The notes: generated by a model not told the origin, from the sequence alone. A stretch of DNA of 64,000 nt from an uncultured Gammaproteobacteria bacterium (GCA_964387625.1 CAYLWN010000001.1:35560-99559); one strand, 5' to 3'; shown: positions 919-53,407, numbered from the stretch's first letter. Program-made: numbers and translations.

Positions 919-2046
919 ATGAAAATACTCTTCATAAGCGAATATTTTCCCACTGATCAATATTTGGATGTTCATGGAGGAATGGAAATGAGAACTTATT
1001 ATGTTGCCAAGCTATTATCTTACAAACATCAAGTTTGGGTTATTACTTCAAGATTAGAAAGTAAATCAAAAAATAAACAAATAAATGGGATTAATGTCAT
1101 ATATGCAGGCATAACAAGATCATATAGCTATATAGGGAGCATTGGTGCAAGAATTATTTTTTCTATCAGCGCTATTTATCTTGGACTATTTACTGAATTT
1201 GATTTAGTTGAGGGAAGCGGATTATTAGGTTGGTTTCCGGCATATATTTTAGGAATTTTAAAGAAAAAGAAAAAAGTCATTATAGTTGCTGATGTTTCAG
1301 AAAACTATTTAACAGGATTTTTAAAGTATATGATTTCAAGGTTTGAAAAATTTATTTTTAAGGTGTCGTGGAATAAGATTATTTGCATCAGTAACACGAT
1401 AAAAAATTATTTGACTATATATGGAATTCAGGAAAAATCTATTGAAACAATTTATTGTGGTATAGACGATAAAATCTCAAATCTTTCAAAAAAAACAAAC
1501 GAGAAATTTAACATAGTTTGTGTTTCCAGACTTGTTCCTTACAAAAGAGTACTTGATCTAGTTAAAGCAGTTCATTTACTTTCACAAAAATACCCACAGA
1601 TTAAATTGGAAATAATTGGTGATGGAGAAGAATATAAAAACATTTATGATTATATAAATAAATATAAACTGAAAAATAATATAAGATTATTAGGTTTTAT
1701 AAAAAAGCATCAAGAGGTGATGGATTATATAAAAAGGGCTTATATTTTTTGTTTACCTTCTATTGTTGAAGGTTTTGGTATTGTAACCATAGAGAGTTTA
1801 GCTCAAGGAGTGCCTGTAATTTTGGCTGATTTGCCAATTCATCACGAAATAACCGAGAATAAGGGGGTAATATTTTTTGATCCTAAAAATTATATTGATT
1901 TAGCAGATAAATTAGAAAATGTTTGGGAAGATGAGATTCTTTATAAGAAGTTACGTACACAAGGACACGAAGTGTCTAAACAATATACTTGGCAAAAAAC
2001 TGCTAATAAAACCGGAAAATTATATGAATATTTGTGTTCTAATTGA
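919..2046 (+). CDS. GT4 family glycosyltransferase
   Basis: C-terminal EGFGIVTIESLAQGVPVI motif, the E-x7-E-like GT-B signature of Glycos_transf_1. ATG at 919. Confidence 0.7.
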   Translation: MKILFISEYFPTDQYLDVHGGMEMRTYYVAKLLSYKHQVWVITSRLESKSKNKQINGINVIYAGITRSYSYIGSIGARIIFSISAIYLGLFTEFDLVEGSGLLGWFPAYILGILKKKKKVIIVADVSENYLTGFLKYMISRFEKFIFKVSWNKIICISNTIKNYLTIYGIQEKSIETIYCGIDDKISNLSKKTNEKFNIVCVSRLVPYKRVLDLVKAVHLLSQKYPQIKLEIIGDGEEYKNIYDYINKYKLKNNIRLLGFIKKHQEVMDYIKRAYIFCLPSIVEGFGIVTIESLAQGVPVILADLPIHHEITENKGVIFFDPKNYIDLADKLENVWEDEILYKKLRTQGHEVSKQYTWQKTANKTGKLYEYLCSN

Positions 2047-3157
2047 TGCATGGGATCCCATTTGGGGTGGTGGTCAAACACACGTATGGGAAATTTCCAA
2101 ATTGTTAATTGGTAAATATAATCATAATATTGATATTTATACTAGAAAAATTATATCTGAAGATAACAATACTTATGTAAACAATGAACAATATTATAAA
2201 GGAAAATTAAAAATAATCAGGATTGGTCCTTTAACCAAGTTTTTTAATCCTTTGGCAAGAACTTTATGGTTCCTTAGTGTTATGGCTTCGGTGATTAAAA
2301 ATCATAGGCAAAAAAAATATACTCTGATTCATGCGCACGCATATTTATCAGGAATCCCTGGCAAAATATTAAGTAAATTACTGGGTATTCCTGTGGTATT
2401 TACTGTTCATGGCAGTAATTTGCTGGATTTGAATAAGAAGACATTGCTGTATTATTTAGAGAAATTTATATTAACTCAAATAAAATATGATCAGGAAATC
2501 TCTGTTTCAAATTCATTTTTAAAATATGAAAATACTAATTCAAACATTGAAGTGATTCCCAATGGCGTAAACGTACAAGAATTTGATAAAGTAAAGAAAG
2601 CCGTTGATAAAAGCAAATTTTCATATTTATGGGTAGGTAGATATGACAAGGTAAAAGGTTTACCCATTTTAATAGAAGCATTTAATAAATTATTATTATG
2701 TTATAAAGATATTCAACTTATTCTGGTTGGAGACGGACCTGAAAAAAACAAAATTCAATTATTGGTTAATAAATTTAAAATAATTGATTTTATTAAGTTT
2801 ATTCCAAAAACTAAACATGAGGATCTCATAAAGATATACAAACAGTCGGATGTTTTTGTTTTGCCTTCATTGACAGAAGGTCAGCCAATTACTATTTTGG
2901 AGGCTTGGGCTGCTAAATTACCTGTGATTGCTTCAAAAGTAGGCGATAACGTAAAATTGATTGAAAATGAAGTCAATGGAATTTTAGTAAATCCAAATAA
3001 TATTGAAGATCTGTACCAAGCGATGCTAAATATATATAGATTTAATAAACGGGAACTTTTGGGAAATAAGGGACACGAGTTAGTTTTAAAAAAATATACT
3101 TGGATAAAGAATGTTATAAAATTAGAACGAATATATAAACAATTGTTCTTATATTAA
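2024..3157 (+). CDS. GT4 family glycosyltransferase
   Basis: TEGQPITILEAWAAKLPVIASKVGD motif. I chose the in-frame ATG at 2024 (MNICVLIDAWDPIWGGGQTH, a typical GT4 N-terminus) over the track start at 1919, which lies inside the conserved C-terminus of the upstream GT4. Confidence 0.65.
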   Translation: MNICVLIDAWDPIWGGGQTHVWEISKLLIGKYNHNIDIYTRKIISEDNNTYVNNEQYYKGKLKIIRIGPLTKFFNPLARTLWFLSVMASVIKNHRQKKYTLIHAHAYLSGIPGKILSKLLGIPVVFTVHGSNLLDLNKKTLLYYLEKFILTQIKYDQEISVSNSFLKYENTNSNIEVIPNGVNVQEFDKVKKAVDKSKFSYLWVGRYDKVKGLPILIEAFNKLLLCYKDIQLILVGDGPEKNKIQLLVNKFKIIDFIKFIPKTKHEDLIKIYKQSDVFVLPSLTEGQPITILEAWAAKLPVIASKVGDNVKLIENEVNGILVNPNNIEDLYQAMLNIYRFNKRELLGNKGHELVLKKYTWIKNVIKLERIYKQLFLY

Positions 3158-10221: not shown

Positions 10222-11199
10222 TCATTTTATTATTGAAAACATTTCATTAAAACGCATAATATATGTGTGATCTTTACGGGTTTTAAGCCAACCATTTTTT
10301 GCAATTCTCTCTCTTTCTTTGTCACGTTTAAGATAATAAATTGCCTTTTGTCTTAGTTCTTTTTTATTTCTGAAAAAAACCATTTCTTGATCTTCAATGA
10401 ATAATTTAGCTAATGCTGGGCAATATTCGCTTAAAATAAATGTACCAACACCGGTTGCTTCAAAATTTCTTAAGTTAGCAGTGTTGATAGGTATACCCTT
10501 TTCTCCCGTTAAAACATTAATAACAATTTTTGCTTGTCTAAAAATATTCTGCATCCTATTTACAGGTAAGTAATTTCGATAATAAGGGGCCATAATGGTA
10601 TGTTTCCAATGCGGATAACCCCAAAGATTAAAATTTAAATCGCAAATTTCAGAAAAATAATTTATTCTCTTTTGAGTCCTGTGTCCAGCAAAAACAATAT
10701 CATAAATTTTGGGTGTTTGAATAATTTTAATATCTGCTTGACCAGCCACTGGTAAATAATATGTTTTTCTTCCTGTTTGATTTAATTTTGTAGTAAGCAT
10801 TGTACAAACAGAAAAAAAATATTTATAGGTTTTTGCTGTTTTTATAAGATTTTGCCACAACACAAGATTATCAGGATACCAGTTTATAGTTATTATTCCC
10901 AAGGAATTAATTTGTTCAATAGTCTTTGGGTAAAACACTTCCCCTTTAACCGTAAAAAAATAATTAGGTTTCAATATTTTAATTTTTTTTATCAATTGAT
11001 GATTTATTCGATTGTTCCTTAATATTTTAAATCTCTTGGAATTGAGTAAGTTTGAGATTATTCCCAGCATACGAGACATTACGTCAGGTTTAAGATAATC
11101 AAATGTAAAGACATCCATTCCAAGTTTTGTTAATGCGTGTTTAATAGGTATAAAAAACGAAGAATTTCTTGGAGAAACGAATAAAATTTTGTTTTTCAT
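10222..11199 (-). CDS. CgeB-family (DUF3880/Glyco_trans_1_2) glycosyltransferase
   Basis: The C-terminal block NLRNFEATGVGTFILSEY...EMVFF..KKEL..K..YYLK...ERERIAKNGW...DHTYIMRF matches the conserved CgeB-like signature. Confidence 0.5.
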   Translation of the reverse strand: MKNKILFVSPRNSSFFIPIKHALTKLGMDVFTFDYLKPDVMSRMLGIISNLLNSKRFKILRNNRINHQLIKKIKILKPNYFFTVKGEVFYPKTIEQINSLGIITINWYPDNLVLWQNLIKTAKTYKYFFSVCTMLTTKLNQTGRKTYYLPVAGQADIKIIQTPKIYDIVFAGHRTQKRINYFSEICDLNFNLWGYPHWKHTIMAPYYRNYLPVNRMQNIFRQAKIVINVLTGEKGIPINTANLRNFEATGVGTFILSEYCPALAKLFIEDQEMVFFRNKKELRQKAIYYLKRDKERERIAKNGWLKTRKDHTYIMRFNEMFSIIK

Positions 11200-11273
11200 A
11201 AAATCTGATTATAACTTATAATTATATCAATATATTATTGACTAAAAGCATAAGACTGTGATACAAATAAACA

Positions 11274-11657
11274 ATGAAAATTATATCAAAATTCCCAGTG
11301 TATAAGGATAATCGTGGTCAAATAGTTAATATATTCGATTTTACTAAAAATAACAAAATTAAGTCGTCATTAATAATTACATCTAAAAAAGACGCTATTA
11401 GAGCTAATCATTACCATAAAACAGATAGTCATTATATATATTTAATATCCGGAAAATTTGAATATTATGAAAAAAAATTAAAAAATAATAGTAAGATTAA
11501 ATCAATAACTATAAACAAAGGTGATTCAATTAATACTGAAACCGGCATAATACATGCAATGAAATTTCTTGAAGATTCAATTATGTTAGTTTTAACTACT
11601 GAAGATAGAGATCAGAAAAAATACGAAAAGGACATAGTAAGAATTAAATTAATTTAA
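11274..11657 (+). CDS. WxcM/FdtA-like cupin (putative NDP-sugar 3,4-ketoisomerase)
   Basis: 127 aa beta-rich protein. The N-terminus reads 'DNRGQIVNIFD...ANHYHKTDSHY', with His pairs like the FdtA/QdtA cupin family. Confidence 0.4.
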   Translation: MKIISKFPVYKDNRGQIVNIFDFTKNNKIKSSLIITSKKDAIRANHYHKTDSHYIYLISGKFEYYEKKLKNNSKIKSITINKGDSINTETGIIHAMKFLEDSIMLVLTTEDRDQKKYEKDIVRIKLI

Positions 11658-12892
11658 ATGATTCTTGGTTTAGGAACTGGAAGAATAAATTTACCCCATT
11701 TACGAAAATTTTTATGATTTTTCATTATTGATTCTGCAAAATTCCAAGCAAGAATAAATAAATAATCAGGTTTGTCTTTATATAATTTTTCCGACTTAAC
11801 TATAGGAATTCTGGTTCCCGGAGTATATAATCCCTGTTTATAAATACTATCTTCAATAATATACTCAATAATTTTATTATTTATTCCAAAATAATTTAAA
11901 AGTGTATTCCCTTTTGCGGGTGCTCCGTATCCGGCAATTCTTTTTCCTTTAGATATTAGCGTATTAAGAACATTTAGAAGAGTAATTTTGTTATTTTCTA
12001 TTCTTTTAGAAAAATTAAGATAAGTGTTTAAAGAATTTAATTTTAGTCTTTTTTCCTCTTTCAGTAATTTAATAACTGAGGATTGAACTTTATATTTACT
12101 TTCATTTAATGCAACAAAAACTCTTAAAGATCCTCCGTGTGAATTAACTCTTTCAGCTCGGAATATTTTCATGTTAAATCTATTAAATAAAATTTGTAAA
12201 GGTACAACAGATAAATACGATAAATGTTCATGATATACAGTGTCAAATAAATTGTTTTGTAAAAAATCAATCAAATAAGGAGCTTCAATTATAAACACAC
12301 CATTTTTGTTTAAAATAATTTTGACTCCGTTGATAATTTCATCTAAATCATGAATATGAGCAAAAACATTTGTTGCGCAGACAATATCAGCTGACCCATA
12401 TTTGTTAAATATTTTTTTTGCTAGTTTTATATTAAAAAATTCTGGTAAAGTTGTTATTTTTTGATCAATGGCTGTTTTGGCAACATTTTTTGCGGGTTCA
12501 ACGCCTAAAACACGCATATTTAGTTTTTTTAGCGGTTTAAGTAAAATTCCGTCATTGCTACCGATATCTATACATAATGAATTATTTTTTAGATGTAAAG
12601 TTTTAGTTACATGATCGGCAAAATCTTGAAAGTGTTTTATAAAAACAGAGGAAGTTGATGAATAGTAAACATAATCTTTAAATAATATTTTTGGAGATAC
12701 TACATATCGAAGCTGTAACAAATAACACTTTTGACAAAAACACACGATTAATGGGTAAAAAGTTTCTTTTTTATTAAGATTTTTCTCATTTATAAATGCA
12801 TTTGCTAGGGGAGTAGGTCCAAAATTAAACACGTCTTTTAAATTGTTGTTTTTGCATATTCTGCAAATTTCAATTTTAGTTATAGTTTTCAT
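11654..12892 (-). CDS. NDP-hexose C-methyltransferase family protein (TylCIII/TcaB9-like; Zn-ribbon + SAM MT + C-terminal domain)
   Basis: N-terminal CRIC...CQKC zinc ribbon, SAM motif I 'CIDIGSNDG', a conserved 'DTVYHEHLSY' block, and a C-terminal 'AGYGAPAKGNTLLNY...YTPGT.IPI' block. Paralog of 28702..29937. Confidence 0.6.
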   Translation of the reverse strand: MKTITKIEICRICKNNNLKDVFNFGPTPLANAFINEKNLNKKETFYPLIVCFCQKCYLLQLRYVVSPKILFKDYVYYSSTSSVFIKHFQDFADHVTKTLHLKNNSLCIDIGSNDGILLKPLKKLNMRVLGVEPAKNVAKTAIDQKITTLPEFFNIKLAKKIFNKYGSADIVCATNVFAHIHDLDEIINGVKIILNKNGVFIIEAPYLIDFLQNNLFDTVYHEHLSYLSVVPLQILFNRFNMKIFRAERVNSHGGSLRVFVALNESKYKVQSSVIKLLKEEKRLKLNSLNTYLNFSKRIENNKITLLNVLNTLISKGKRIAGYGAPAKGNTLLNYFGINNKIIEYIIEDSIYKQGLYTPGTRIPIVKSEKLYKDKPDYLFILAWNFAESIMKNHKNFRKWGKFILPVPKPRII

Positions 12893-12940
12893 TAAAACTT
12901 AGAATTAATTGATAAATTTTGTTACAATAGCGTTCATTAT

Positions 12941-14008
12941 ATGAATAATCCAACAATCAATCAAGATTTAATAGAAATAAGTAAATCTCTTAAAGATGAA
13001 GTAAAAAAACTTAAAAATAAAACGATTTTGATTTCAGGAGGATCAGGTTTTATCGGTAATTATATTGTTAGATTCATTTTATATTTAAACAAAAAATACC
13101 CAAACTTTAAATGCAGAGTTATTTCTATAGACAATTATATAACCGGATCTAAGAATAATTTAAATAAATTTTCCAATAACGGTTTAAAGTTAATTGAACA
13201 TGATATAAGAAATCCTTTAAAAATAAGCGAGCCTATTGATTATATTATTCATGCCGCAGGCGTAGCCTCACCAATTTATTATAAAAAATTCCCAATAGAA
13301 ACAATTGAAACAACGATATACGGAGCAAAAAATCTTCTTGAGTTAGCCAGAATAAAAAAAATAAAAGGGTTTTTATTTTTTAGTTCAAGTGAAATATATG
13401 GTGATCCGGATCCTTCATCAATACCTACGCCGGAAACATATCGGGGAAACGTGTCTTGCACGGGTTCCAGGGCTTGTTATGACGAGTCCAAGCGATTAGG
13501 GGAAACCCTTTGTTTAGCATATCACGAAGTGCATAAAATTCCGATTAAAATTGTCAGACCATTTAATGTATTTGGTCCAGGTATGAAATTAAATGATTAT
13601 CGCGTCATTCCTATGTTCTTTAGTAGAGCGTTAACAAATAAGCATTTACCCGTACATGATAATGGAAATCAAACTCGAACTTTTTGTTATATCACTGACG
13701 CAATAATTGCTATATATAAAGTATTACTAATGGGTAAAAATGGCGAAATATACAACATTGGAAATGATACTAATGAAATAAATATGATGAGTTTAGCTAA
13801 TATTGTTTCTCAATTATTTAAGAAAAAGCCTGAAGTTCGATCGGTGCCTTATCCTTATAAATATCCATCTGATGAGCCTCGAAGAAGATTACCTGATTTA
13901 ACTAAAATAAAAACATTACTGAATTATCAACCTAGTGTTGATTTAATAACAGGTTTAAAACGAACTAAAAAATGGTATAAGGAAATGAATTTAGCTAAAC
14001 TATTTTAA
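12941..14008 (+). CDS. UDP-glucuronate decarboxylase (UDP-xylose synthase, UXS/ArnA-C-like SDR)
   Basis: GGSGFIGN Rossmann motif. The block 'SSSEIYGDP....PE.Y.G.V...G.RACYDESKRLGETLC.AY' closely parallels the UXS 'RACYDEGKRVAETMCYAY' active-site region. An 'FNVFGPGM' block is also present. Confidence 0.65.
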   Translation: MNNPTINQDLIEISKSLKDEVKKLKNKTILISGGSGFIGNYIVRFILYLNKKYPNFKCRVISIDNYITGSKNNLNKFSNNGLKLIEHDIRNPLKISEPIDYIIHAAGVASPIYYKKFPIETIETTIYGAKNLLELARIKKIKGFLFFSSSEIYGDPDPSSIPTPETYRGNVSCTGSRACYDESKRLGETLCLAYHEVHKIPIKIVRPFNVFGPGMKLNDYRVIPMFFSRALTNKHLPVHDNGNQTRTFCYITDAIIAIYKVLLMGKNGEIYNIGNDTNEINMMSLANIVSQLFKKKPEVRSVPYPYKYPSDEPRRRLPDLTKIKTLLNYQPSVDLITGLKRTKKWYKEMNLAKLF

Positions 14009-14072
14009 CATTACCAATCTAACTAGAGTAATAGAAATTAGTAAAATAATTTTTGGGTCAGAATATGAATTT

Positions 14073-14100
14073 AGAGCTAAATTTTGAACAGCTTTTTTTA
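14073..14100 (+). terminator. candidate weak intrinsic terminator downstream of the UXS gene
   Basis: agagct (14073-78) pairs with agcttt (14090-95) to give an AU-rich stem of 4-6 bp, followed directly by a T7 run (14093-14099). It sits about 65 nt after the stop, in a 161 bp convergent intergenic region. Confidence 0.2.
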
Positions 14101-14169
14101 TATATATAGTAATTATTATTGTCCATTTTTACTAAATTTTATTAAAAAATATTTTAGCATAATTCTGAT

Positions 14170-15822
14170 TTATTTTACTTGAATAATGTCAATAATAGGT
14201 CCTAGTCTTTCAATTCTTACGGTCTCTAGCGTATTTGCTGAACCATGAATTAAATTAACAATATTATTGGTATCGTTTGATTTCATGGGAGAAAATCTTT
14301 TTATTAATATATATTTTTGTTTATCTAGTTTATTTATAAGAGATGAATTATAGGACCAGTAATAGTTAAATATATATTTAATATCATTGTTATAGACATA
14401 TTTATTTATATCGTTCACATTATTAACATCAATAACTTTTTCAAAATAAATAATATTTCGTAAATTATCAGAAGATATTGAAGAGTTTATTAGACTTTTT
14501 AATTTTTGATATGAACCTGGTTTATTTTTTTGTATTAAGTTAATTGCTTCCATATTTGGTACGAATGGACTAAAACGAATGGATGTTGAGGCTACTTTAA
14601 TATCTTTAGAAATATTCTGGTTAATCCAAGAAGATGCTTGTATAAACGTAGGAGTTTGTAAATATCTAGATAGCCAAAAACACGAGGGTAAAATGGCTAA
14701 GATTATTATTATTGAGTAAATTATTTTTACTAAAATACCTGATCTATTGATTAAATTCAATCGATATATAAAATACCCAGTGAATATTGGGAAGATAATT
14801 AATACTGGCAACATGTACCTTAAAGATTGGTAAAAAGTTATCGAAATAAATAAAAAATATACAATTGAATAAAAAGCTATAGAAATTAATAATTTTGGTA
14901 AGTATTTAAAAAACCAAATTATACATAAAAAGGTTAGCAATATAACAGGTTCAGTAAATAAAAATTCTTTTAGGTAAAAAATAATATATTTAAAAAATCC
15001 ATCTTGGAAATTACCAAAAAGAATATTTGTAAATTCAGTAGACGCGTATTTATAACTCATTAATCTTGTAAAAAGTATGAATGACAATATAGGCAATAAA
15101 ATGATTAATAAATATTCAAAATAATTATGACCCAATTTTCTAATTCTCCAAAATCTAAAAAACCAGATGATAAATATTAATCCTAAACCATAAACTGCTG
15201 AAAAATGAAAACCGATAGCAAAAGATAAGAAGAAAACAGCAATTAAAGCATCAAAAATTCTATACTTATTTATTTGATATTTGATAAGCCAATAAATAGC
15301 TAGAGAATAGAAAAACAATGACAACATCCATGGTTTTGCCGTATGAGACATTTGAATTTGAGTAATTGAAAATGTAGAAAAAAATAATACCCATAAATAA
15401 ATATTATTTTGTTTAGGAAAAATCAATTGAGTTATTTTAAAAATTACATATACTGTACATGTACCGAATAATGCAGATATAATTCTAGGAATAAACATAA
15501 AATAACCTTCATGTGTCACCAAAAACAACATAAATTGTTCGATAGTGGATACTTGATGTAATATCAGCTTATAAATATAGGCTAAAATAAAAAATGGCAG
15601 CATTATATGGGATCCAAGCGGCGGATATTGCGAACTAGTTACTAGGCTTTTATTAGCTAACATTTGCCATGCAGCAAGGTAATTTGGTACTTCATCCGGA
15701 ATTACATATAATACAGGAGAACCAAAATTTGGATTAACGACACGGATTACAAATCCCACTAATAATATGATTGGAACAAAATATTTTTTTAAATTTGAAA
15801 GTTTTATTATGTTTGTTGGCAT
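14170..15822 (-). CDS. GT-C fold glycosyltransferase (ArnT/PMT-like), polytopic membrane protein
   Basis: 550 aa, 12 or more TM helices. The first loop carries 'VIPDEVPNYLAAW', a DE motif like PMT/ArnT. C-terminal soluble domain. Confidence 0.5.
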   Translation of the reverse strand: MPTNIIKLSNLKKYFVPIILLVGFVIRVVNPNFGSPVLYVIPDEVPNYLAAWQMLANKSLVTSSQYPPLGSHIMLPFFILAYIYKLILHQVSTIEQFMLFLVTHEGYFMFIPRIISALFGTCTVYVIFKITQLIFPKQNNIYLWVLFFSTFSITQIQMSHTAKPWMLSLFFYSLAIYWLIKYQINKYRIFDALIAVFFLSFAIGFHFSAVYGLGLIFIIWFFRFWRIRKLGHNYFEYLLIILLPILSFILFTRLMSYKYASTEFTNILFGNFQDGFFKYIIFYLKEFLFTEPVILLTFLCIIWFFKYLPKLLISIAFYSIVYFLFISITFYQSLRYMLPVLIIFPIFTGYFIYRLNLINRSGILVKIIYSIIIILAILPSCFWLSRYLQTPTFIQASSWINQNISKDIKVASTSIRFSPFVPNMEAINLIQKNKPGSYQKLKSLINSSISSDNLRNIIYFEKVIDVNNVNDINKYVYNNDIKYIFNYYWSYNSSLINKLDKQKYILIKRFSPMKSNDTNNIVNLIHGSANTLETVRIERLGPIIDIIQVK

Positions 15823-15885: not shown

Positions 15886-17049
15886 ATGAAAAATTTATTA
15901 AAGCCTATTAGCTATAACAAACAATCAATTGATACTCTAGACATTAAATCTGTTATTAAGGTTTTAAAATCCGATTTTTTGACACAAGGACCTTTGATTG
16001 AAAAATTTGAAAACGAACTGACAAAATATTGCAAAGTAAAATATGCAGTAGTTTTCTCTTCAGGTACTTCAGCTTTGCATGGAGCATGTTATGCAGCGGG
16101 AATCAAAAAAGGGGATGAAGTGATAACAACTCCTATGACATTTGCTGCTTCAGTAAATTGTGTGATGTATTGTGGTGGTATACCTGTATTTGCTGATATT
16201 AAGCCAGAAATTCCATTAATTGATCCAAACGAAATATTAAAAAAAATTACTAAAAAAACTAAAGCCATAATTCCGGTTGATTATTCAGGAATGCCAGCAG
16301 ACTATGATGAAATTAGTGAAATTGCCAAAAAACATAATTTGATAGTTATTGCTGATGCGTGTCATTCATTAGGAGCTACATATAAAGGAAGCAAGGCTGG
16401 TTCGTTAGCTGACATGTCTATTTTTAGTTTTCATCCGGTAAAATCTATAACTACAGGAGAAGGAGGAGCTGTATTAACAAATAATTATAAATTTTATCAG
16501 AGACTAATATTGTTTCGGACGCATGGCATTACCAAAGATCCTAAACTATTTATTAACAAAAACGAAGGTCCTTGGTATTATGAAATGCAGGATTTAGGCT
16601 TTAATTACCGATTAACGGATATTCAAGCAGCGCTAGGCTTATCTCAATTAGTCAAATTATCTAAATTTATCAAGGTACGTCAAAAAATTGCTGGTTTTTA
16701 TCAACGACAACTAAAAAACATTAGCAATATAAAATTTTTAACAGTTCCCAAAAATAGAACGTCATCTTGGCATTTATTTCCAATACAAATTAGAAACATT
16801 TCATTTTTTCAAAAAACACTATTGGTAAAAATGCTGCATAAAGCCAATATCAAAGTACAAGTTCATTACATACCAGTTCATTTGCAACCGTATTATACAA
16901 AGAAGTTTGGATATAAAAAAGGAGATTTTCCAATTTCTGAAAAATTCTATCAAGAGGAAATTTCAATACCGATTTATCCAAATCTTACAAAAAATGAACT
17001 TAATTATGTACTAATGAATTTACTACTAAATAGTAATAAAATGAATTAG
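15886..17049 (+). CDS. pseC: DegT/PseC-like PLP-dependent UDP-4-keto-6-deoxy-sugar aminotransferase
   Basis: The N-terminus 'QSIDTLDIKSVIKVLKSDFLTQGP' matches the PseC signature. Also 'FSFHPVKSITTGEGG', with the PLP lysine, and 'GFNYRLTDIQAALG'. Confidence 0.65.
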   Translation: MKNLLKPISYNKQSIDTLDIKSVIKVLKSDFLTQGPLIEKFENELTKYCKVKYAVVFSSGTSALHGACYAAGIKKGDEVITTPMTFAASVNCVMYCGGIPVFADIKPEIPLIDPNEILKKITKKTKAIIPVDYSGMPADYDEISEIAKKHNLIVIADACHSLGATYKGSKAGSLADMSIFSFHPVKSITTGEGGAVLTNNYKFYQRLILFRTHGITKDPKLFINKNEGPWYYEMQDLGFNYRLTDIQAALGLSQLVKLSKFIKVRQKIAGFYQRQLKNISNIKFLTVPKNRTSSWHLFPIQIRNISFFQKTLLVKMLHKANIKVQVHYIPVHLQPYYTKKFGYKKGDFPISEKFYQEEISIPIYPNLTKNELNYVLMNLLLNSNKMN

Positions 17050-17473
17050 ATCTGAAGATCGAAAAATTGTTCTTTTGAAATATTTTTAAAGAAATTATAT
17101 TGTTTTTCTTTATTTTTGCTTTTATTGGTATTTTTCTAGTTTTAACCAGCTTTAGGGTTTTTTGAAGAAAGTAGCTTCCATAACCCTGATTTAAAAAACG
17201 TTTATCAATTCCTATAGATAAATAATAAATGTTTCTCGCTAAGTTGTATCTACAATATCCAATAATTATATTTTCTGAATATTTTAAATTGACTTCAAGT
17301 AAAAATATGTAATTATTAGAATTGTCTAAGAATTTTTTATACCACTTTATGTGTTGAGAGAATTGAATTAACTCCGTATTGATAGATTTATTTCTTACGT
17401 GTTTTTGATTTCTGATTAACAATAAACTCTTTGCGTCAGAAAGTTTTGCTTTTCTAATAGACAAATTATTCAT
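17000..17473 (-). CDS. GNAT family N-acetyltransferase (PseH-like candidate)
   Basis: The 'NQGYGSYFLQKTLK' acetyl-CoA motif A is present. I set the start at the first ATG (17473), which forms an ATGA overlap with the stop of the upstream synthase gene. The track start at 17491 is TTG. The 3' end overlaps convergent pseC by 50 nt. Confidence 0.5.
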   Translation of the reverse strand: MNNLSIRKAKLSDAKSLLLIRNQKHVRNKSINTELIQFSQHIKWYKKFLDNSNNYIFLLEVNLKYSENIIIGYCRYNLARNIYYLSIGIDKRFLNQGYGSYFLQKTLKLVKTRKIPIKAKIKKNNIISLKIFQKNNFSIFRSNSFYYYLVVNSLVHN

Positions 17474-18525
17474 TCTTGAATCATTTTCCAACTTAAAGGT
17501 GACCCTTTTTCAATATTTTGTTTTGCAGCTTTTCCAATAATCTGATCTAGATATACAGGCGATATTCCATATCCTGGTCTAATGCACTTAATATTTTTAT
17601 AAGTAATACGTTCTCCTTTTTTTATATCTTTTACAGCAAACAACGAACGTTTAAAAATGATATTTTCAGATTCTTGTTTATCAGGTTTATATGTAATTTT
17701 TCCCATAGCTTTTTCTACATCACGAATAGTTATTACCAATTGTTTCATTTCCTTAGGTTCGAGAGAAAAAGTTGAATCATATCCATCATCTTTTCTGGAT
17801 AAAGTAATATGTTTTTCAATTATTTTTGCTCCCATTGCAACAGCAGTGATTGAAGCAGTTAATCCTAAACTATGATCAGATAATCCGGTAATTACTTTAA
17901 ATTTATGTTGAATATCTTGCATAGTTCTTATGTTCATTTGATTTAAAGTGGCAGGATATGAGCTGATACAATGTAATACTGCAATATTTTTTGATCCTGC
18001 AGTTTTAAGCGTTTTAATGGCTAATTTAATATCTTCAAGCGACGCTAATCCTCTAGAAATAATTACCGGTTTTTTAGTTTTGCCAATACGTTTTAATAGT
18101 TCTAAATCTATATTTTCAAATGACGCAATTTTATATAATGAAACATTCATTTTTTCTAAAAAATCTACCGCAGAATTATCAAATGGGGTAGAAAAACAAA
18201 TCAAACCTTTTTTTTCTGCATAAGATTTTAGCTTGGGTTGCCATTCCCAAGGTGTGTATGTTTTTTGATATAAAGTATAAAGGGTAGTACCTTTCCATTT
18301 TCCGGAAGTTATTTTAAACCATTTTTTATTGCTGTTTATTGTTAATGTTTTGGGAGTATATGTTTGTAATTTTATTGCGTCAACACCAGATTTTGCTGCC
18401 TCATCTACAATTTTATAAGCTTGATCGATATCTTGATTGTGGTTTCCTGACATTTCAGCAACTATAAAACACGGTGAGTTTTCACCAATTGTTTTTTTTC
18501 CGATTTTGAAGTTAATATTATTCAT
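17470..18525 (-). CDS. NeuB/PseI/LegI-family nonulosonic acid synthase (TIM barrel + C-terminal SAF domain)
   Basis: 'GENSPCFIVAEMSGNHNQDIDQAYKIVDEAAKSGVDAIKLQTYT' is the canonical N-terminus of sialic/pseudaminic acid synthases. The C-terminal 'RPGYGISP' block is an SAF domain. Confidence 0.75.
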   Translation of the reverse strand: MNNINFKIGKKTIGENSPCFIVAEMSGNHNQDIDQAYKIVDEAAKSGVDAIKLQTYTPKTLTINSNKKWFKITSGKWKGTTLYTLYQKTYTPWEWQPKLKSYAEKKGLICFSTPFDNSAVDFLEKMNVSLYKIASFENIDLELLKRIGKTKKPVIISRGLASLEDIKLAIKTLKTAGSKNIAVLHCISSYPATLNQMNIRTMQDIQHKFKVITGLSDHSLGLTASITAVAMGAKIIEKHITLSRKDDGYDSTFSLEPKEMKQLVITIRDVEKAMGKITYKPDKQESENIIFKRSLFAVKDIKKGERITYKNIKCIRPGYGISPVYLDQIIGKAAKQNIEKGSPLSWKMIQE

Positions 18526-19657
18526 TCTGTTTTTCCCAGATATTATCTTTTAACCAGTTTCCTTTTTTATCTTTATTCCATACTAAAGAGTTTCTGAATG
18601 AATTTGCAATTTTCCAAAAATCTTTTTCGCTCATGTTGACATATTTAAGCCAATAATTTAAATCCTTAGGTATTATATGGTCATATTTTTTTACCATTTC
18701 TATGCCTTGTTTGCGAGTCATATATCCCATTTTAATATCTTTTGAAGCATGATCAGATGCTCTACCATATCCGAATTTTATATATTTTAAATAGTCATGA
18801 AGACCGTTTTCATAACGGTCATCCAGATTGGAAAAATTTCTATAGGTTCTGTCAAACGGTTTTTTTCTTGGTTTCCAACCGTATTTTTTTTGTATAAGTT
18901 TTGCATGCTGATTAGGATCCCATTTAAAAAAGTTTCCTATATAAAGACCTTTCACTCCTACTTTTAGAATTTCCTCATCAGCCGGATATTTTGCCCATAA
19001 AAGATCTTTTTCAGTAAGTTTTTCTTGAGAATCTGTAATTAAGTCATACCATTCAAAGCCTCTTAAGGAATGCTCATGCCTGCTTCTGTTGCTAAATTCA
19101 ACAAAATCTTCAGGTTCATACATACCTGAAATATCCCAGGCAATTTCTCCCCAAATAATCAATGGAATATTAAATTTGACTGCAATTTGAATTGGATAAG
19201 TTGAGATACCGCAGTGCGCATGCCAATTCATATCTCCCATTTTTCTAAAACATAGGCGGTTTAATTTTTTTAATACTTCCACACTGGGACCAAATACGAG
19301 ATGATCTGCATCAAATTTGTGACGCATTTGATCGCGGTTATAATCACCTTCAGGTAAATAATTATTACCGTGATATGTAACCAAAAGAGGTTTTAATCCA
19401 TATTCTTTAACAATTGTGTGTGTTTGAAAATAACTATCTTTACCGCCACTAACAGGAATTACACAATCATAATTTGACTTATTATTTTTTGTTGTTTGCG
19501 TTATGATCTGTAAAAACTTTTTTTTCCTTATTTTCCAAAACTCGTTTGTTAATTTCTTAAATTTTTCAAATGTCCGACAACTTGAACATACGCCATTTTC
19601 ATCGATATATAAATTGACAGCAACTTCAGGATAGACACATTTTTTACAATATCGCAT
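18518..19657 (-). CDS. N-acetyl sugar amidotransferase (PP-loop ATPase; PseA/WbuX family)
   Basis: N-terminal Cys-rich ribbon (CKKCVYPE...CSSC) and a PP-loop 'SGGKDS' motif. About 380 aa, as in WbuX/PseA. A GGAGG Shine-Dalgarno lies 4 nt upstream of the ATG. Confidence 0.65.
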   Translation of the reverse strand: MRYCKKCVYPEVAVNLYIDENGVCSSCRTFEKFKKLTNEFWKIRKKKFLQIITQTTKNNKSNYDCVIPVSGGKDSYFQTHTIVKEYGLKPLLVTYHGNNYLPEGDYNRDQMRHKFDADHLVFGPSVEVLKKLNRLCFRKMGDMNWHAHCGISTYPIQIAVKFNIPLIIWGEIAWDISGMYEPEDFVEFSNRSRHEHSLRGFEWYDLITDSQEKLTEKDLLWAKYPADEEILKVGVKGLYIGNFFKWDPNQHAKLIQKKYGWKPRKKPFDRTYRNFSNLDDRYENGLHDYLKYIKFGYGRASDHASKDIKMGYMTRKQGIEMVKKYDHIIPKDLNYWLKYVNMSEKDFWKIANSFRNSLVWNKDKKGNWLKDNIWEKQNE

Positions 19658-19660
19658 ATA

Positions 19661-19666
19661 CCTCCA
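19661..19666 (-). promoter_or_regulatory. Shine-Dalgarno (GGAGG) for the amidotransferase gene
   Basis: The minus strand reads TGGAGGTATATG, with the ATG at 19657. Confidence 0.5.
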
Positions 19667-19734
19667 ATTATTTAATAAATAAGATGGTTTTAAATTTTAA
19701 GAGGCAGTATATATCTTATCGTTTTAACACAGCT

Positions 19735-20550
19735 CTATTTTTTATCTATTAAAATCAAATCTGGTGATCTAACATTAAAACCATTTTCAAATAAATACTT
19801 TTTTGCCAAATAAACACTTTGATCAGTATATTGGAAAATATTTGCGGCTGCTATTGCATCAACTTTTGTTTTTGTCAAGGCTTCAGCGAAGTGACTCCAC
19901 TCACCAACTCCGCCACAAGCTATAATCGGGATTTTAACGCAATCTGCGACTTCTTTAATTAAGTGTATGTCATAACCATTTTTGACACCGTCTCTATCTA
20001 CAGAATTTAATAGTATTTCTCCGGCGCCAAAATTTTCGACAGTTTTTGCCCAATCAACAGGATTATAGCATGTTGGTTTAAGACCGTATTCAGACATAAC
20101 GATGTATTTATTATTAATTTTTTTTACATCGATTGAAACTACTATGCATTGTGATCCGAATTCATGTGCAGATTCGGATATAAATTTAGGTTTTTTCAAA
20201 GCTATCGTATTGATAGAAATTTTATCTGCCCCCTTCTTAAGTCTGATTTCAATATCGTTTAAATTTTTTATTCCACCTCCGACCGTAATTGGCATCAAGG
20301 CAACCTTAGAGACGTCATTTATAATATCTAAGAAATTATTTCTATTGGGGTTGTGAATATCATTACGTCGTAGGTCATAATTTTTATTTCTAGATATATC
20401 TAAATATATTAACTCGTCAGCAGCCCATTCACTCAATCGTTTGACTGAAGTTACAGGGTTGCCTAAATTTTGGAAACGTTTAAATTGCTTACTTTGAACC
20501 AACCAACCGTTCTTTAATAGAAGTACAGGTACCAAGCGCTTTTTCTTCAT
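19735..20550 (-). CDS. HisF-like cyclase subunit (WbuZ family) of the sugar amidotransferase system
   Basis: The N-terminus 'RLVPVLLLKNGWLVQSKQFKRF...GNPV' matches the HisF (beta/alpha)8 N-terminus. 'ADELIYLDI' and 'GGGI' blocks are also present. Confidence 0.65.
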   Translation of the reverse strand: MKKKRLVPVLLLKNGWLVQSKQFKRFQNLGNPVTSVKRLSEWAADELIYLDISRNKNYDLRRNDIHNPNRNNFLDIINDVSKVALMPITVGGGIKNLNDIEIRLKKGADKISINTIALKKPKFISESAHEFGSQCIVVSIDVKKINNKYIVMSEYGLKPTCYNPVDWAKTVENFGAGEILLNSVDRDGVKNGYDIHLIKEVADCVKIPIIACGGVGEWSHFAEALTKTKVDAIAAANIFQYTDQSVYLAKKYLFENGFNVRSPDLILIDKK

Positions 20551-21161
20551 AAATTTAGGAAATTATATAAAAGCATTTGTCCGGCTTTTTGGCTTTTTTC
20601 TGGATGGAATTGAACACCGTAAATATTATCCATATTAATAATAGCTGCGAAATTATTTCCATAGTTTGTTTGAGCAATCAAATTTTTTTTATTTTTTGGT
20701 TGAAATACAAAACTATGGACAAAATAAAAATCAAGAGTCTTAAATTGTTTAGTTAATGGTGAGGTTTGTATGACTTCTATATTATTCCAACCGATATGAG
20801 GTAATGGAAGGAATCCTGAATCCAATTTTTTTACTTCTCCCGGAATCCACCCTAGTCCAGTAGTGATTTCAAATTCATATCCTTTATTGGCTAGTACCTG
20901 CATTCCAACGCAAATACCTAAAAAAGGTTTTTTATCTGTAAAAACAGCTTTTTCTAAATGAGTCATAGGGATTAACTGATGGATCTTTCGCATTGCCGCT
21001 GCATATGCGCCAACGCCAGGTAAAATCAAATGAGTAGCATTTTCAATATCACGGGTTTGGTTTGAAATAGTAACATTAGGGTTTAATGTTGTTGCTAAAT
21101 TAAATACAGATTTTACATTACCTGATCCATAGTCCAGAATGCAAATACTAATTTTTTTCAT
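20547..21161 (-). CDS. HisH-like glutamine amidotransferase subunit (WbuY family)
   Basis: 'ISICILDYGSGNVKSV', 'LILPGVGAY', 'PFLGICVGMQVL' with the catalytic Cys, and 'HSF'/'QFHPEKS' with the catalytic His. This is the class I GATase triad. Confidence 0.7.
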   Translation of the reverse strand: MKKISICILDYGSGNVKSVFNLATTLNPNVTISNQTRDIENATHLILPGVGAYAAAMRKIHQLIPMTHLEKAVFTDKKPFLGICVGMQVLANKGYEFEITTGLGWIPGEVKKLDSGFLPLPHIGWNNIEVIQTSPLTKQFKTLDFYFVHSFVFQPKNKKNLIAQTNYGNNFAAIINMDNIYGVQFHPEKSQKAGQMLLYNFLNL

Positions 21162-21293
21162 AACAGCTATTTTTATACAGTCTTAGGTATAGGTAATTAT
21201 AAATTTTGGTTTATAAATTCTGAAGTTTTTAAAAACCAATAATTATATTAATAGTATTATCTACGGTGTTAATAATTTATATAAAAACATATT

Positions 21294-22301
21294 TTATCCC
21301 TTTTTTATTCCAGATGCAGAGTAATATTCTCGGGTTTGCATAGCTTGTTCAAGTAATTTACCTGGTGTATAAAACCTATCACCTAAAATTACACGATCCA
21401 ATATCGGCTTATTATTTTTATCTACTAATTTATTTATTATAAGAGAGCCTTCATTACAAGCGACAAATAAGGAATTTGAATTAATTCGGTATATGATACC
21501 AGTTTGAAAAGGATGAAATTTACCGTCAGTTGTAATACAATAACAATCTTTAATCCTGACTAATTTTCCGTTTAAAAATGTCATAGCACCAGGATAAGGA
21601 TCATCAAAGGCGCAAATGAAACTTTCAATATCAAAAAGTGTCCAACTCCAGTCGATGTATGCGTGTTTATTGGTTGCTAGTCTTGGCCAGTAACTGCTGA
21701 AATATTCAGTTTGTGAAATATGTTTAAATTCGTTATTTTTCTCTATTTTTTTAATAAATGACCCAATAAATTTTAGGTATTGATTCGTAGAAAATTTTTG
21801 AAAATCTAAAGAAATACGACAAAAGGCAGGAAATACATATTCTTCGTAATATACGATATCTCCGGTATCTACTCCGTCGTCAATTAAATGAATTAGGTTA
21901 AATCCTTGCCGGTCTTTCCGTAATATTCTCCAGGAGAATCCACCGCCACCTCTGTCCTGAGGAAGTTTACTACCATGTAGATTAATTAATCTAGAATTAA
22001 ATTTTCTAATAAAACTTGATTTAAAAATCCAAGCAGCTCCTATTGAAATACCTAAAGTAGTTGGAGTGATAATTTCATCAATAATTTTATTATTTAAATT
22101 GGATAATGAAATGTAAGGAATTTTATTCTTATTTAATAATGTGGCTAAAGTAATTCCTATATCAGGAAGGATTTCATTAACGTGTCGTGGGCTGGTGACA
22201 ACAGTAATTTTTTTTTCTTGTTTAGTTAGGGTAATTGCCAATTCACCCAATAATTTTCCGCCGCCAAGAAGTAAATAATGGTCAATTTTTCCAAATCGCA
22301 T
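21294..22301 (-). CDS. formyltransferase-fold protein (Fmt/PurN/ArnA-N-like; putative sugar N-formyl/acyl transferase)
   Basis: 'INLHGSKLPQDRGGG' corresponds to the N-x-H...SLLP..RG catalytic loop. 'LIHLIDDGVDTGDIV' corresponds to the H..D.G.DTG.I motif. There is an Fmt-like C-terminal domain. Confidence 0.5.
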   Translation of the reverse strand: MRFGKIDHYLLLGGGKLLGELAITLTKQEKKITVVTSPRHVNEILPDIGITLATLLNKNKIPYISLSNLNNKIIDEIITPTTLGISIGAAWIFKSSFIRKFNSRLINLHGSKLPQDRGGGGFSWRILRKDRQGFNLIHLIDDGVDTGDIVYYEEYVFPAFCRISLDFQKFSTNQYLKFIGSFIKKIEKNNEFKHISQTEYFSSYWPRLATNKHAYIDWSWTLFDIESFICAFDDPYPGAMTFLNGKLVRIKDCYCITTDGKFHPFQTGIIYRINSNSLFVACNEGSLIINKLVDKNNKPILDRVILGDRFYTPGKLLEQAMQTREYYSASGIKKG

Positions 22302-22584
22302 AATTCAACTTTCCCGAACAGAAATTTGTCTGCCTTTAAGATAGGATTTAATCCGTACTATATCATAGTCTTTTAAAAAAAACATTTTTAATAACATTTT
22401 TTACAGTTGTTTTTCTAGCCTTTTTTATAATCTAATTTTGTTTTGTTTCCCAATTTCAGAAGATATTAAGTACTCCAATAATCAAAATAAATAGATTCCT
22501 GGTTATTAAATAAAATACAACATTAACAACGAAGTTGTTGATTAATAAAATTAATTTAGAATTTTTAACGGCGTAAACAATTAA

Positions 22585-23895: not shown

Positions 23896-23904
23896 GAATT
23901 AATC

Positions 23905-24675
23905 CTAAATAACAACTTTCTTATCTAATTTAAGAGATTTTTGATAGCCAATATTTCTAGAGATATATTTATTAATATTTTCCAGTTCCGGGTGTTTTTG
24001 AATGAATTTGATTATATCACTTATGCTAAAATACGGTTTTATATTATATAATCCTTGGTAGATTTTTTTAATAAATTTATAATCTTCCGGATAATCAAGT
24101 GTCCACCTTTTGTTTGAAAGGTCGATAGAGTTTTTAAAATCAAAAATTGAGAACAATTTTGGATGTTTATAAATAAAAGACGTGACATGTTCACGTTCAG
24201 ACAATAATTTTGCTTTTTGCCAGGTTTTTTTTAAAGTTAAATAAGTCATAATTTCAATATCTTCACCATCCGGATAAGTAGGAGGCTGACTATTTGTAGA
24301 ATAATCATTTTTTTGTTTTTCATGGCATAATATCATTTGATCTACCAATTGAGGATCAATCAACGGGCAATCCGAAGTTATACGGATGATGTTTTGTAAT
24401 TGGAATAATCTGGCTGCTTGATAATAGCGATCTAAAACATCATTAGTTGATCCACAATAAACATGTGTTTGTAAATTAAAACAAATTTTCAAAATTTCCA
24501 GATCTTTTTTTTCAATTGTGGTTGCAATAATTAAGATAGAAGACTTTTTAACCCTATTAAGTCTTCTAATTATGTGTTCTAAAACAGTTTTTTTACAAAT
24601 TGGTAAAAGTATTTTATTCGGTAAACGAGTAGATCCGCATCTAGCCTGCACAACGATACCGTATTTATGTGACAT
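23905..24675 (-). CDS. CMP-sugar synthetase / cytidylyltransferase (SpsF/NeuA/KdsB family)
   Basis: N-terminal 'GIVVQARCGSTRLPNKIL' matches the SpsF-like 'QAR.GSTRLP.K' signature. Confidence 0.55.
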   Translation of the reverse strand: MSHKYGIVVQARCGSTRLPNKILLPICKKTVLEHIIRRLNRVKKSSILIIATTIEKKDLEILKICFNLQTHVYCGSTNDVLDRYYQAARLFQLQNIIRITSDCPLIDPQLVDQMILCHEKQKNDYSTNSQPPTYPDGEDIEIMTYLTLKKTWQKAKLLSEREHVTSFIYKHPKLFSIFDFKNSIDLSNKRWTLDYPEDYKFIKKIYQGLYNIKPYFSISDIIKFIQKHPELENINKYISRNIGYQKSLKLDKKVVI

Positions 24676-47701: not shown

Positions 47702-47715
47702 ATTTGTTTATATCT

Positions 47716-51826: not shown

Positions 51827-51827
51827 G

Positions 51828-53401: not shown

Positions 53402-53407
53402 ACAAAA

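Follow-up and report, generated by a model that had tools for sequence, protein, structure and literature searches.

Methyl-branched sugars are known almost exclusively from actinomycete antibiotics and a few lipopolysaccharide (LPS) structures. To our knowledge, their enzymology has been built entirely on dTDP-4-keto-6-deoxyhexoses: all the characterised TylCIII/TcaB9-family C-methyltransferases that we know of use nucleoside diphosphate (NDP)-4-keto-6-deoxyhexoses, as dTDP derivatives methylated at C-3 or C-5, and we know of no description of an S-adenosylmethionine (SAM)-dependent C-methyltransferase acting on a pentose. For virenose, a sugar of the LPS of Coxiella burnetii, the involvement of a TylCIII homolog has been proposed (PMC3539893). 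Among enzymes of the UDP-xylose synthase (UXS) family, ArnA, CalS9, AtmS9, RsU4kpxs and EvdS6 release UDP-4-keto-xylose for downstream tailoring, which is known to take the form of transamination (ArnB, CalS13), with thiamine diphosphate-dependent C-acetylation proposed for eurekanate (PMC10338323). Here we analysed a 64,000-nucleotide stretch of DNA from an uncultured bacterium (GCA_964387625.1 CAYLWN010000001.1:35560-99559; hereafter the window, with positions counted from its first letter), in which a small FdtA-like cupin gene, a gene for a TylCIII/TcaB9-type C-methyltransferase (MT1; homologs, MT) and a gene for a UXS-like short-chain dehydrogenase/reductase (SDR) are neighbours (Table 1). 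Cupin, MT and SDR form an uncharacterised three-gene cassette that is widespread in uncultured bacteria and archaea and that usually has a GFO/IDH/MocA oxidoreductase as its fourth member, absent from the window. Its product is probably a C-methylated sugar derived from UDP-glucuronic acid and not from a 6-deoxyhexose. All three proteins are members of known families, and what is new is the combination and the substrate it implies; within incomplete literature coverage, we found no paper linking a SAM-dependent C-methyltransferase to a UDP-glucuronate decarboxylase, UDP-4-keto-pentose or 4-keto-xylose.

Conservation of the cassette was assessed across 80 loci carrying a cupin homolog, sampled at one genome per species and labelled by tblastn, which came from candidate phyla radiation (CPR) bacteria, Woese-, Nano- and Thaumarchaeota, Elusimicrobia, Proteobacteria, Chloroflexota and others. 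All individually read neighbourhoods combined the cupin with a C-methyltransferase and an SDR of approximately 353 aa. In 66 of the 80 loci the cupin had an MT no more than 1.5 kb away (47 of 54 when only loci with 3 kb or more of sequence on each side were counted), and in 50 an SDR at least 40% identical to that of the window lay within 2 kb. Both were near the cupin in 45 loci, 32 of which also carried a GFO/IDH/MocA oxidoreductase (GFO), and the commonest order was cupin-MT-SDR-GFO (21 loci). L074 (Desulfovibrio sp. PCE-4 lineage) and L044 (Kordiimonas) carried the full cassette, L077 (Ca. Lucifugimonas marina JH545) only MT and cupin. The association also held in reverse, as three close SDR homologs picked without regard to the cupin all sat in a full cassette (3/3), and at least 21 of the best 120 MT homologs come from a contig of the same length as that of one of the best 120 SDR homologs. 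In nine genomes, comprising seven DPANN archaea, one Magasanikbacteria and one Parcubacteria, MT and SDR were fused in a single open reading frame (ORF) of 760-768 aa (loci L011, L014, L019, L020, L021, L022, L023, L024 and L040; e.g. L014 5386..7680 and L021 5379..7679). The C-methyltransferase spanned residues 1 to ~412 of the fusions and the UXS-like SDR residues ~413-763, with both domain sets confirmed by Pfam, and the fusion genes always directly followed the cupin gene. These fusions weakly suggest that the MT takes the SDR product directly.

The gene order in the window was glycosyltransferase (-), cupin (+), MT (-), SDR (+), membrane protein (-) and aminotransferase (+), syntenic with L001, L091 and L093, in which the MT is likewise inverted. 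The first-pass annotation had described the cupin and MT1 as convergent genes overlapping by four nucleotides; both sets of coordinates, as well as the motif 'HYHKTDSH' (residues 46-53 of the cupin), proved exact, and the overlap is real, with both stop codons falling within the palindrome TTAA. The same stop codon overlap was found in L001 and L091, but not in L093. As cupin and MT genes run in the same direction in most other genomes, the convergent pair represents a lineage-specific inversion of the MT gene inside a conserved gene order. A promoter and terminator scan of 11000..14300 returned 27 sites against 24.9 +/- 5.7 in shuffled sequence, and thus no enrichment, with one terminator-like site inside the MT gene; the scan was uninformative on transcription units. 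With 61 close cupin homologs, 850 cupin cluster representatives at E<=1e-10 (of 1.84 billion), more than 7,900 MT1 homologs at E<=1e-20 and eleven invariant residues in the cupin family (D12, R14, G15, R43, N45, H46, H48, G60, H94, F98 and R112), neither gene is a chance ORF. Exact-sequence matches in Candidatus Gottesmanbacteria bacterium GW2011_GWA1_34_13 (CPR) are annotated 'hypothetical protein UR52_C0001G0078' for the cupin and 'methyltransferase-like protein' for MT1. The divergent glycosyltransferase beside the cupin, a candidate transferase for the cassette product, kept the same place and orientation in L001, L015, L091 and L093 and was 53% identical to the L091 protein.

The best solved relative of the SDR was human UXS1 (hUXS1; 191 bits, 37% identity), followed by a next chain at 120 bits, dTDP-glucose 4,6-dehydratases at ~98 bits or less and ArnA at ~62 bits. 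The motifs SSSEIYGDP, CYDESKR and QTR of the window SDR correspond to STSEVYGDP, CYDEGKR and QTR in hUXS1. Residues that define the UXS class (GxxGxxG, the Ser/Thr-Tyr-Lys triad, and Glu120, Asn176 and Arg277 of hUXS1) were kept in the window SDR and in 55 of 55 cassette SDRs, across which S119, E120, Y147, D148, E149, K151, R152, N176 and R277 of hUXS1 were invariant. Read directly, the sequence lacks the Asp of the 'TDE' motif that marks 4,6-dehydratases, and no curated equivalog model was passed. Triad residue Thr118 of hUXS1, equivalent to Thr126 of EvdS6, was replaced by Ser in the window SDR and all 55 cassette SDRs (loci L001-L088). In EvdS6 a Thr to Ala change at the triad loses the reductive half-reaction only, and release of 4-keto-xylose is not predictable from the active site (PMC10338323). 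The change to Ser, seen throughout the clade, thus deserves mention and does not settle product release. For annotation purposes, the SDR should not be named dTDP-glucose dehydratase or generic epimerase.

MT1 was confirmed as a TylCIII/TcaB9-family sugar C-methyltransferase, as first proposed. The Pfam check suggested at that stage gave scores above gathering for all three domains (PF08421, 76.8 bits; PF13489, 45.4; PF08484, 192.9), and the best PDB matches were MtmC (4rv9, deposited as 'D-mycarose 3-C-methyltransferase'; 322 bits, 5.6e-95, residues 6-412), KijD1 (5t64; 224 bits, 4.6e-65) and TcaB9 (3ndi; 208 bits, 2.7e-60). In a MAFFT alignment MT1 was 31-39% identical to these three enzymes and retained their four zinc cysteines (CxxC...CxxC). 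The columns of TcaB9 Tyr76, His181, Tyr222, Glu224 and His225, which we take to be the active-site set and numbering from mutagenesis work (a SEQRES offset of 2 was consistent at five positions), were identical in MT1 and in a second window paralog, MT2. Clustering with non-sugar methyltransferases, raised as the outcome that would overturn the family assignment, was not seen, since MT1 aligned over its full length with sugar C-methyltransferases; NCBIfam offered no usable family for it (best match UbiG, 33 bits). Glycan loci of cultured bacteria also contained MT1 homologs, which were present on 169 plasmids, among them plasmids of the Bacillus cereus group and S. meliloti pSymB. Given these glycan-locus homologs and the TylCIII homolog proposed for Coxiella virenose, a C-methyltransferase in an envelope locus is not new in itself. 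The plasmid homologs (Bacillus cereus group, S. meliloti pSymB, Streptomyces) were considered as models for the cassette and set aside, as they have neither a cupin nor a UXS-like SDR.

Placement of the cupin was less direct. Its Pfam scores were all marginal (PF14667, 29.5 bits against a cut-off of 28.7; FdtA PF05523, 24.2 against 23; Cupin_2, 24.3, below cut-off), and NCBIfam gave no WbuC match and no usable family. Placement by sequence alone, in which PDB sequences were searched with phmmer and a profile of the family, was rejected, because oxalate decarboxylase (OxdC) came top through motif-1 similarity summed over two domains. The family profile scored Cap5F at 22.9 bits (E 6e-4), an archaeal RmlC-like chain at 20.9 and FdtA at 20.8, an ambiguity for which a fold search and profile-profile alignment were needed. 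An AlphaFold (AF2) model of the cupin (pLDDT 91.6) gave as its best Foldseek matches FdtA, QdtA, HCAN_0198, FdtD, WlaRA and WlaRB, at TM 0.75-0.79, with the first three at 0.76-0.79 (PDB entries among the top matches: 2pa7, 4zu7, 7n67, 4mzu and 5tpu), with RmlC-type epimerases close behind (TM ~0.72) and CapF not among the best 50. Using hhalign, the cupin family aligned with FdtA/WlaRB at a probability of 84.5% (E 6.9e-6), pairing its DxRG motif with that of FdtA, H46/H48 with FdtA H49/H51, H94 with His95 and position 53 (His or Gln) with Gln56. H49 and H51 are the FdtA residues mutated in entries 2pae (H49N) and 2pak (H51N), and H46 and H48 were invariant in 36 family members. The other possibility raised at the outset, that the cupin is an RmlC 3,5-epimerase, was rejected: there was no match to PF00908 at E<=0.01 (only weak matches to archaeal RmlC-like chains, 16-21 bits), and the protein has 127 aa against ~180-200 aa for an RmlC subunit. 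The FdtA-like assignment therefore stood on fold, length and the His pair, with a marginal Pfam score for FdtA. 'FdtA-like' is the best label for what is nevertheless a distinct small family that may possess epimerase activity, and the cupin should not stay 'hypothetical' in annotation.

Genes for the last step of the pathway varied between loci in an informative way. Among 52 loci with cupin, MT and SDR, 36 had only a GFO, seven had only a DegT-family aminotransferase, none had both and nine had neither (some contigs being truncated), which fits two alternative last steps. The DegT gene lay within ~1 kb of the cupin in the seven loci (e.g. L006 4866..5978) and directly upstream of it in five. 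It was closest to C-3 aminotransferases (QdtB, 355 bits; DesV, 326; 7n63, 306; WlaRG, 289; WbpE, 246) and two to three times less close to C-4 enzymes (PerA, 153; ArnB, 124-139; PseC, 114). As the DegT-only loci contain no other keto-generating enzyme, the SDR must supply a keto group at C-4, which then has to be shifted to C-3; by analogy, such a shift is the reaction of the FdtA-like cupin. These loci also hold the closest relatives of the window cupin outside its own lineage (48-56% identity). The best solved relatives of the cassette GFO were the uncharacterised 3c1a (128 bits) and, second, 7bvj (51 bits), and the GFO family includes known sugar C-3 oxidoreductases.

Two side groups of loci depart from this pattern. 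In L013, L034 and L035 (e.g. L035 5001..7314) the arrangement was cupin-SDR-GFO with no methyltransferase nearby, so that cupin, SDR and GFO may be a working unit alone (a pentose epimerisation route) to which the MT is an add-on. In a distant subgroup (L082, L084, L085, L087 and L088) the order was MT-cupin-DegT (e.g. L084 3779..6472; L087, at a contig end, shows cupin-aminotransferase only), and the aminotransferase resembled the C-4 type perosamine synthase (316 bits to 3bn1). This subgroup probably represents a different C-methyl amino-sugar pathway, and indicates that the MT-cupin partnership is older and broader than the link to the decarboxylase.

From gene structures, family memberships, conserved catalytic residues and the conserved gene set, MT-SDR fusions included, we derived a model in which UDP-glucuronic acid is converted to a UDP-4-keto-pentose that is then ketoisomerised and C-methylated; we hold this to be somewhat more probable than not. 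The SDR would oxidise UDP-glucuronic acid at C-4, decarboxylate it and release UDP-4-keto-xylose, as do ArnA, CalS9, RsU4kpxs and EvdS6. The cupin would then shift the carbonyl from C-4 to C-3 via an enediol using its His46/His48 pair, as in FdtA and QdtA, and the MT would deprotonate a carbon beside the carbonyl and methylate the enolate with SAM. In relatives, the 3-keto group would finally be reduced by the GFO-type enzyme or transaminated by the QdtB-like C-3 aminotransferase, and a neighbouring glycosyltransferase would transfer the sugar into an envelope glycan. The parts of this scheme that we infer are the substrate (UDP-glucuronic acid), the release of a keto intermediate, which of cupin and MT acts first, and which carbon is methylated. 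Methylation of a 4-keto-pentose at C-3 would remove the proton needed for 3,4-ketoisomerisation and deprive the cupin of any function on a pentose, and the model consequently implies methylation elsewhere. One option is C-5 methylation of the 4-keto sugar, with the regiochemistry of NovU, whereby decarboxylation followed by methylation would yield a 6-deoxyhexos-4-ulose and bypass the 4,6-dehydratases. The other is C-4 or C-2 methylation of the 3-keto sugar, giving a truly branched pentose (4-C- or 2-C-methyl) synthesised as a nucleotide sugar, with 3-amino variants similar to N-demethyl-garosamine. The UXS-like partner, the fusions and the C-3 aminotransferase, taken as genomic context, favour a keto-pentose substrate and a methylation site other than C-3. 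In the wider reading, which we put forward tentatively and regard as slightly less secure than the model itself, this is an undescribed nucleotide-sugar pathway and its MT the first TylCIII-type enzyme on a keto-pentose derived from UDP-glucuronic acid. The product would be a methyl-branched pentose or 6-deoxyhexos-4-ulose decorating cell surfaces, and the cassette would owe its distribution over CPR bacteria, DPANN and thaumarchaeal archaea, Elusimicrobia and some Proteobacteria to horizontal transfer.

Several points weigh against a route from UDP-glucuronic acid. The window has no cassette GFO gene: in L091 (5059..6006), L093 (3889..4791) and L001 (8726..9667) this gene lies between the SDR and the 550-aa membrane protein, and a search for a remnant in the corresponding 161-bp spacer of the window (14009..14169) returned only noise (E>1). 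The GFO/IDH/MocA gene elsewhere in the window was rejected as a substitute, being 24-25% identical to cassette GFOs, and no QdtB-like aminotransferase was found among the neighbouring genes of the cassette, the three DegT-family genes of the window being only 33-34% identical. Candidates for the last step in the window are re-reduction by the SDR itself, as in EvdS6, the RmlD-like enzyme or one of the three DegT aminotransferases. UDP-glucose 6-dehydrogenase genes were rarely found inside cassette loci, so that co-location gives no support for a UDP-glucuronic acid supply; the probable source in the window, 30 kb away, scored 296 bits against NCBIfam TIGR03026 (cut-off 190), with UDP-glucose 6-dehydrogenase AglM as its best equivalog (271 bits, below cut-off). 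The window also encodes a CDP-glucose-type start that could feed either of its methyltransferases, and we know of no precedent for a UDP-pentose substrate in the MT family. A neighbour-joining tree of 71 MTs, built without reference sequences of NovU, CloU and TylC3, was poorly resolved and did not unite the cassette MTs, which fell into at least three groups with actinomycete enzymes in between; we therefore make no claim on MT monophyly or on C-3 versus C-5 type. Cupin sequence scores cannot separate FdtA, the Cap5F cupin and archaeal RmlC-like proteins, the top Pfam match is PF14667 (CapF C-terminal/WbuC-type), and H46, H48, H/Q53 and H94 coincide with the classical cupin metal site (the OxdC ligands). 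In the distant subgroup, where cupins are 33-40% identical, MT and cupin occur with a PerA-like C-4 aminotransferase and no UXS-like SDR, hence the cupin family is not tied to one chemistry. Finally, the SDR could make plain UDP-xylose or use another uronic acid, and the roles of all cassette enzymes are read from genes of carriers that are nearly all uncultured.

The first-pass annotation had pointed to a hexose route. Spelled out, MT1 would methylate a CDP- or dTDP-4-keto-6-deoxyhexose at C-3 with an RfbF/RfbG-like pair (60913..62642) as the start, the cupin would isomerise the same hexose and an RmlD-like enzyme would reduce the product to a 3-C-methyl-6-deoxyhexose, while the adjacent SDR would be an unrelated protein or another reductase/epimerase. 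The genes cited in that annotation are present, with best matches below cut-offs (Table 1; the RmlD-like gene, 33012..33890, matched rmlD at 188 bits against 224). The route also accords with the similarity of MT1 to MtmC, KijD1 and TcaB9 and with the NDP-4-keto-6-deoxyhexose substrates that, as far as we know, all characterised members use, whilst the S. meliloti pSymB homolog of MT1 adjoins an RfbF-like nucleotidyltransferase and an SDR, without a cupin or UXS-like gene. The proposal of a TylCIII homolog for Coxiella LPS virenose (PMC3539893) favours it as well. However, the RfbF/RfbG-like and RmlD-like genes lie 48 kb and 20 kb away and do not travel with cupin and MT in other genomes; the gene kept next to the pair is that of the UXS-like SDR, which nine genomes encode as a fusion with the MT. 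Chemically, moreover, one molecule could not undergo both C-3 methylation and 3,4-ketoisomerisation. The RmlD-like gene instead belongs to a same-strand run with MT2, together with a GT-C glycosyltransferase (31534..33012), an unknown 515-aa protein and a GT1 glycosyltransferase, and a hexose route fits MT2 better than MT1. MT2, not mentioned in the first-pass annotation of the pair, is 47% identical to MT1, has intact zinc and catalytic residues and is likewise closest to MtmC among solved structures (321 bits); the organism may make two different C-methyl sugars. The original interpretation thus holds for the MT family, the FdtA-like cupin and the surface-glycan locus, and loses support for the hexose substrate, a route to the MT1 product that we now consider unlikely.

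A second alternative keeps the cassette and its substrate and casts the cupin as an epimerase that may need a metal and resemble the C-terminal domain of CapF. The carbonyl would stay at C-4 and the MT would act at C-3 or C-5; reduction of C-4 would fall to the UXS-like SDR, re-binding the product with the NADH it has kept, or to a different enzyme. In classical C-methyltransferase pathways the MT is accompanied by a cupin epimerase and a 4-ketoreductase (TylK/TylC2, EvaD/EvaE, NovW/NovS), and the PF14667 and Cap5F matches, the apparent metal ligands and the C-4 aminotransferase of the distant subgroup all agree with this alternative. EvdS6 can re-bind and reduce the 4-keto-xylose it has released (PMC10338323), and the same ability would make the GFO-less window cassette self-sufficient. 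Nonetheless, C-5 of a 4-keto-pentose is not a stereocentre and epimerisation at C-3 ahead of methylation through a C-3 enolate would be purposeless, so an epimerase would have little to do unless methylation were at C-5. The aminotransferase encoded with close relatives of the window cupin is of the C-3 type, and ketoisomerases, not CapF, dominate the fold matches. FdtA, which is metal-free, shares the H/H/Q/H pattern. We give an epimerase a low probability compared with the ketoisomerase of our model. Least probable, and in our view quite improbable, is that the SDR is an ordinary UDP-xylose synthase whose product is re-oxidised to a 3-keto sugar by the GFO acting as a C-3 dehydrogenase (like GnnA and WlbA) before methylation, cupin action and a final reduction: the complete UXS residue set, including residues of the reductive half-reaction, and the match of the GFO to 7bvj, presumably a UDP-GlcNAc 3-dehydrogenase, speak for this, but the seven C-3 aminotransferase loci have no GFO, so that their keto group must be provided by the SDR, a cassette GFO is missing from the window too, and the scheme needs one reductase more than the cassette encodes.

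The remainder of the window (G+C 24-32%, with no tRNA genes found in it) consists almost end to end of glycan-biosynthesis genes, bearing out its initial description as an envelope-glycan locus (Table 1). A pseudaminic-acid-like nonulosonic acid gene set occupied 15886..26764, and the additional genes in it suggest that the nonulosonic acid carries a modification (amidino or formyl); more genes for tailoring and export fell within 45939..54604. Large ORFs (389-685 aa) without a Pfam match were present at 14170..15822, 26761..28647, 29976..31523, 37505..39079 and 54666..59138. The 550-aa ORF beside the cassette was kept in synteny and was 42% identical to the L091 protein, which had a weak GT-C (PF03901) match. 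Two same-strand GT4 glycosyltransferase ORFs (919..2046 and 1919..3157) overlap by 128 nt as listed, and the second probably has its real start at a more downstream position.

Table 1. Positions of the cassette genes and other features of the 64,000-nucleotide window
Feature	Position	Strand	Remarks
PF13524 glycosyltransferase	10222..11199	-	Divergent from cupin; Pfam PF13524 92 bits
FdtA-like small cupin	11274..11657	+	127 aa; proposed 3,4-ketoisomerase or at least enolising enzyme
TTAA common to two convergent stop codons	11654..11657	.	4-nt overlap
MT1, TylCIII/TcaB9/MtmC-family SAM-dependent sugar C-methyltransferase	11654..12892	-	412 aa; zinc ribbon, SAM domain, C-terminal domain
UXS-like extended SDR	12941..14008	+	355 aa; proposed UDP-glucuronate oxidative decarboxylase; absent from first-pass annotation
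PseC	15886..17049		Nonulosonic acid set; above NCBIfam equivalog cut-off
GNAT	17000..17491		Nonulosonic acid set
NeuB-type synthase	17470..18525		Nonulosonic acid set
Unknown 379-aa protein	18518..19657		Nonulosonic acid set
HisF/HisH-like pair	19735..21161		Nonulosonic acid set
Formyltransferase-like protein	21294..22301		Nonulosonic acid set
Class-III aminotransferase	22585..23895		Nonulosonic acid set
CMP-sugar cytidylyltransferase	23905..24675		Nonulosonic acid set
GFO/IDH/MocA protein	24665..25642		Nonulosonic acid set
PseB	25775..26764		Nonulosonic acid set; above NCBIfam equivalog cut-off
MT2, second TylCIII/TcaB9-type C-methyltransferase	28702..29937	-	411 aa; same three Pfam domains as MT1
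Nucleotide-sugar 6-dehydrogenase	44540..45862	-	UDPG_MGDP_dh N-terminal, central and C-terminal domains; probable UDP-glucuronic acid source
Class-I methyltransferase	45939..46769		
408-aa protein with TylF-type O-methyltransferase domain	47716..48942		
UDP-galactopyranose-mutase-like flavoprotein	48975..50198		
ABC-2 (Wzm/Wzt-type) exporter pair	51828..53401		
ArnB/PseC-like aminotransferase	53408..54604		
RfbF-like	60913..61692		Best match glucose-1-phosphate cytidylyltransferase, 258 bits (below 300)
RfbG-like	61653..62642		Best match CDP-glucose 4,6-dehydratase, 206 bits (below 278)

If correct, the model would extend TylCIII-type chemistry to pentoses and UDP-sugars and supply new biocatalysts for glycodiversification. 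The cassette would also offer a first biochemical handle on the surface glycans of CPR bacteria and DPANN archaea, which live on host cells and about whose envelope chemistry next to nothing has been learned. The hypothesis is cheap to test, as UDP-glucuronic acid, NAD+ and SAM are commercially available.

Among described systems, the window locus resembles virenose and other surface 3-C-methyl sugars in having a TylCIII-type MT in a surface-polysaccharide locus and, by implication, a methyl-branched envelope sugar (PMC3539893); the virenose model, in contrast, starts from GDP- or dTDP-4-keto-6-deoxyhexose and includes neither an FdtA-like cupin nor a UXS-like partner. With TylC3, TcaB9, KijD1 and MtmC (C-3) and NovU, CloU and CouU (C-5), MT1 shares the PF08421, SAM and PF08484 domains and the presumed mechanism, an enolate formed beside the sugar carbonyl and methylated from SAM, and the zinc cysteines and Tyr/His/Tyr-x-Glu-His set of the TylC3/TcaB9 group are kept. 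Unlike them, MT1 is encoded in the envelope-glycan locus of a CPR bacterium rather than in a secondary-metabolite cluster, and its conserved partner is a UXS-like decarboxylase, not a 4,6-dehydratase and 2,3-dehydratase set. Given this partner, its substrate is likely a UDP-keto-pentose and methylation is likely not at C-3. The cupin compares with FdtA, QdtA, WlaRA, WlaRB and HCAN_0198 as a single-domain protein of ~130 aa with the same fold, DxRG motif and catalytic His-x-His, and its close relatives are encoded beside a QdtB-like C-3 aminotransferase. It is, however, only 21-27% identical to that group, scores at the threshold of the Pfam FdtA model and forms a separate family, linked to a C-methyltransferase and a decarboxylase instead of RmlA/RmlB and presumably acting on UDP-4-keto-pentose. 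The SDR, lastly, resembles the ArnA C-terminal domain, RsU4kpxs, CalS9, AtmS9 and EvdS6 as an extended SDR with the Ser/Thr-Tyr-Lys triad and the decarboxylase Glu, Asn and Arg, with downstream enzymes that would tailor a 4-keto-pentose. In sequence it is much nearer to the xylose-forming hUXS1 than to ArnA, and it differs from the UDP-4-keto-xylose releasers in its clade-wide Thr-to-Ser change at the triad and in its tailoring enzyme, which here would be a SAM-dependent C-methyltransferase.

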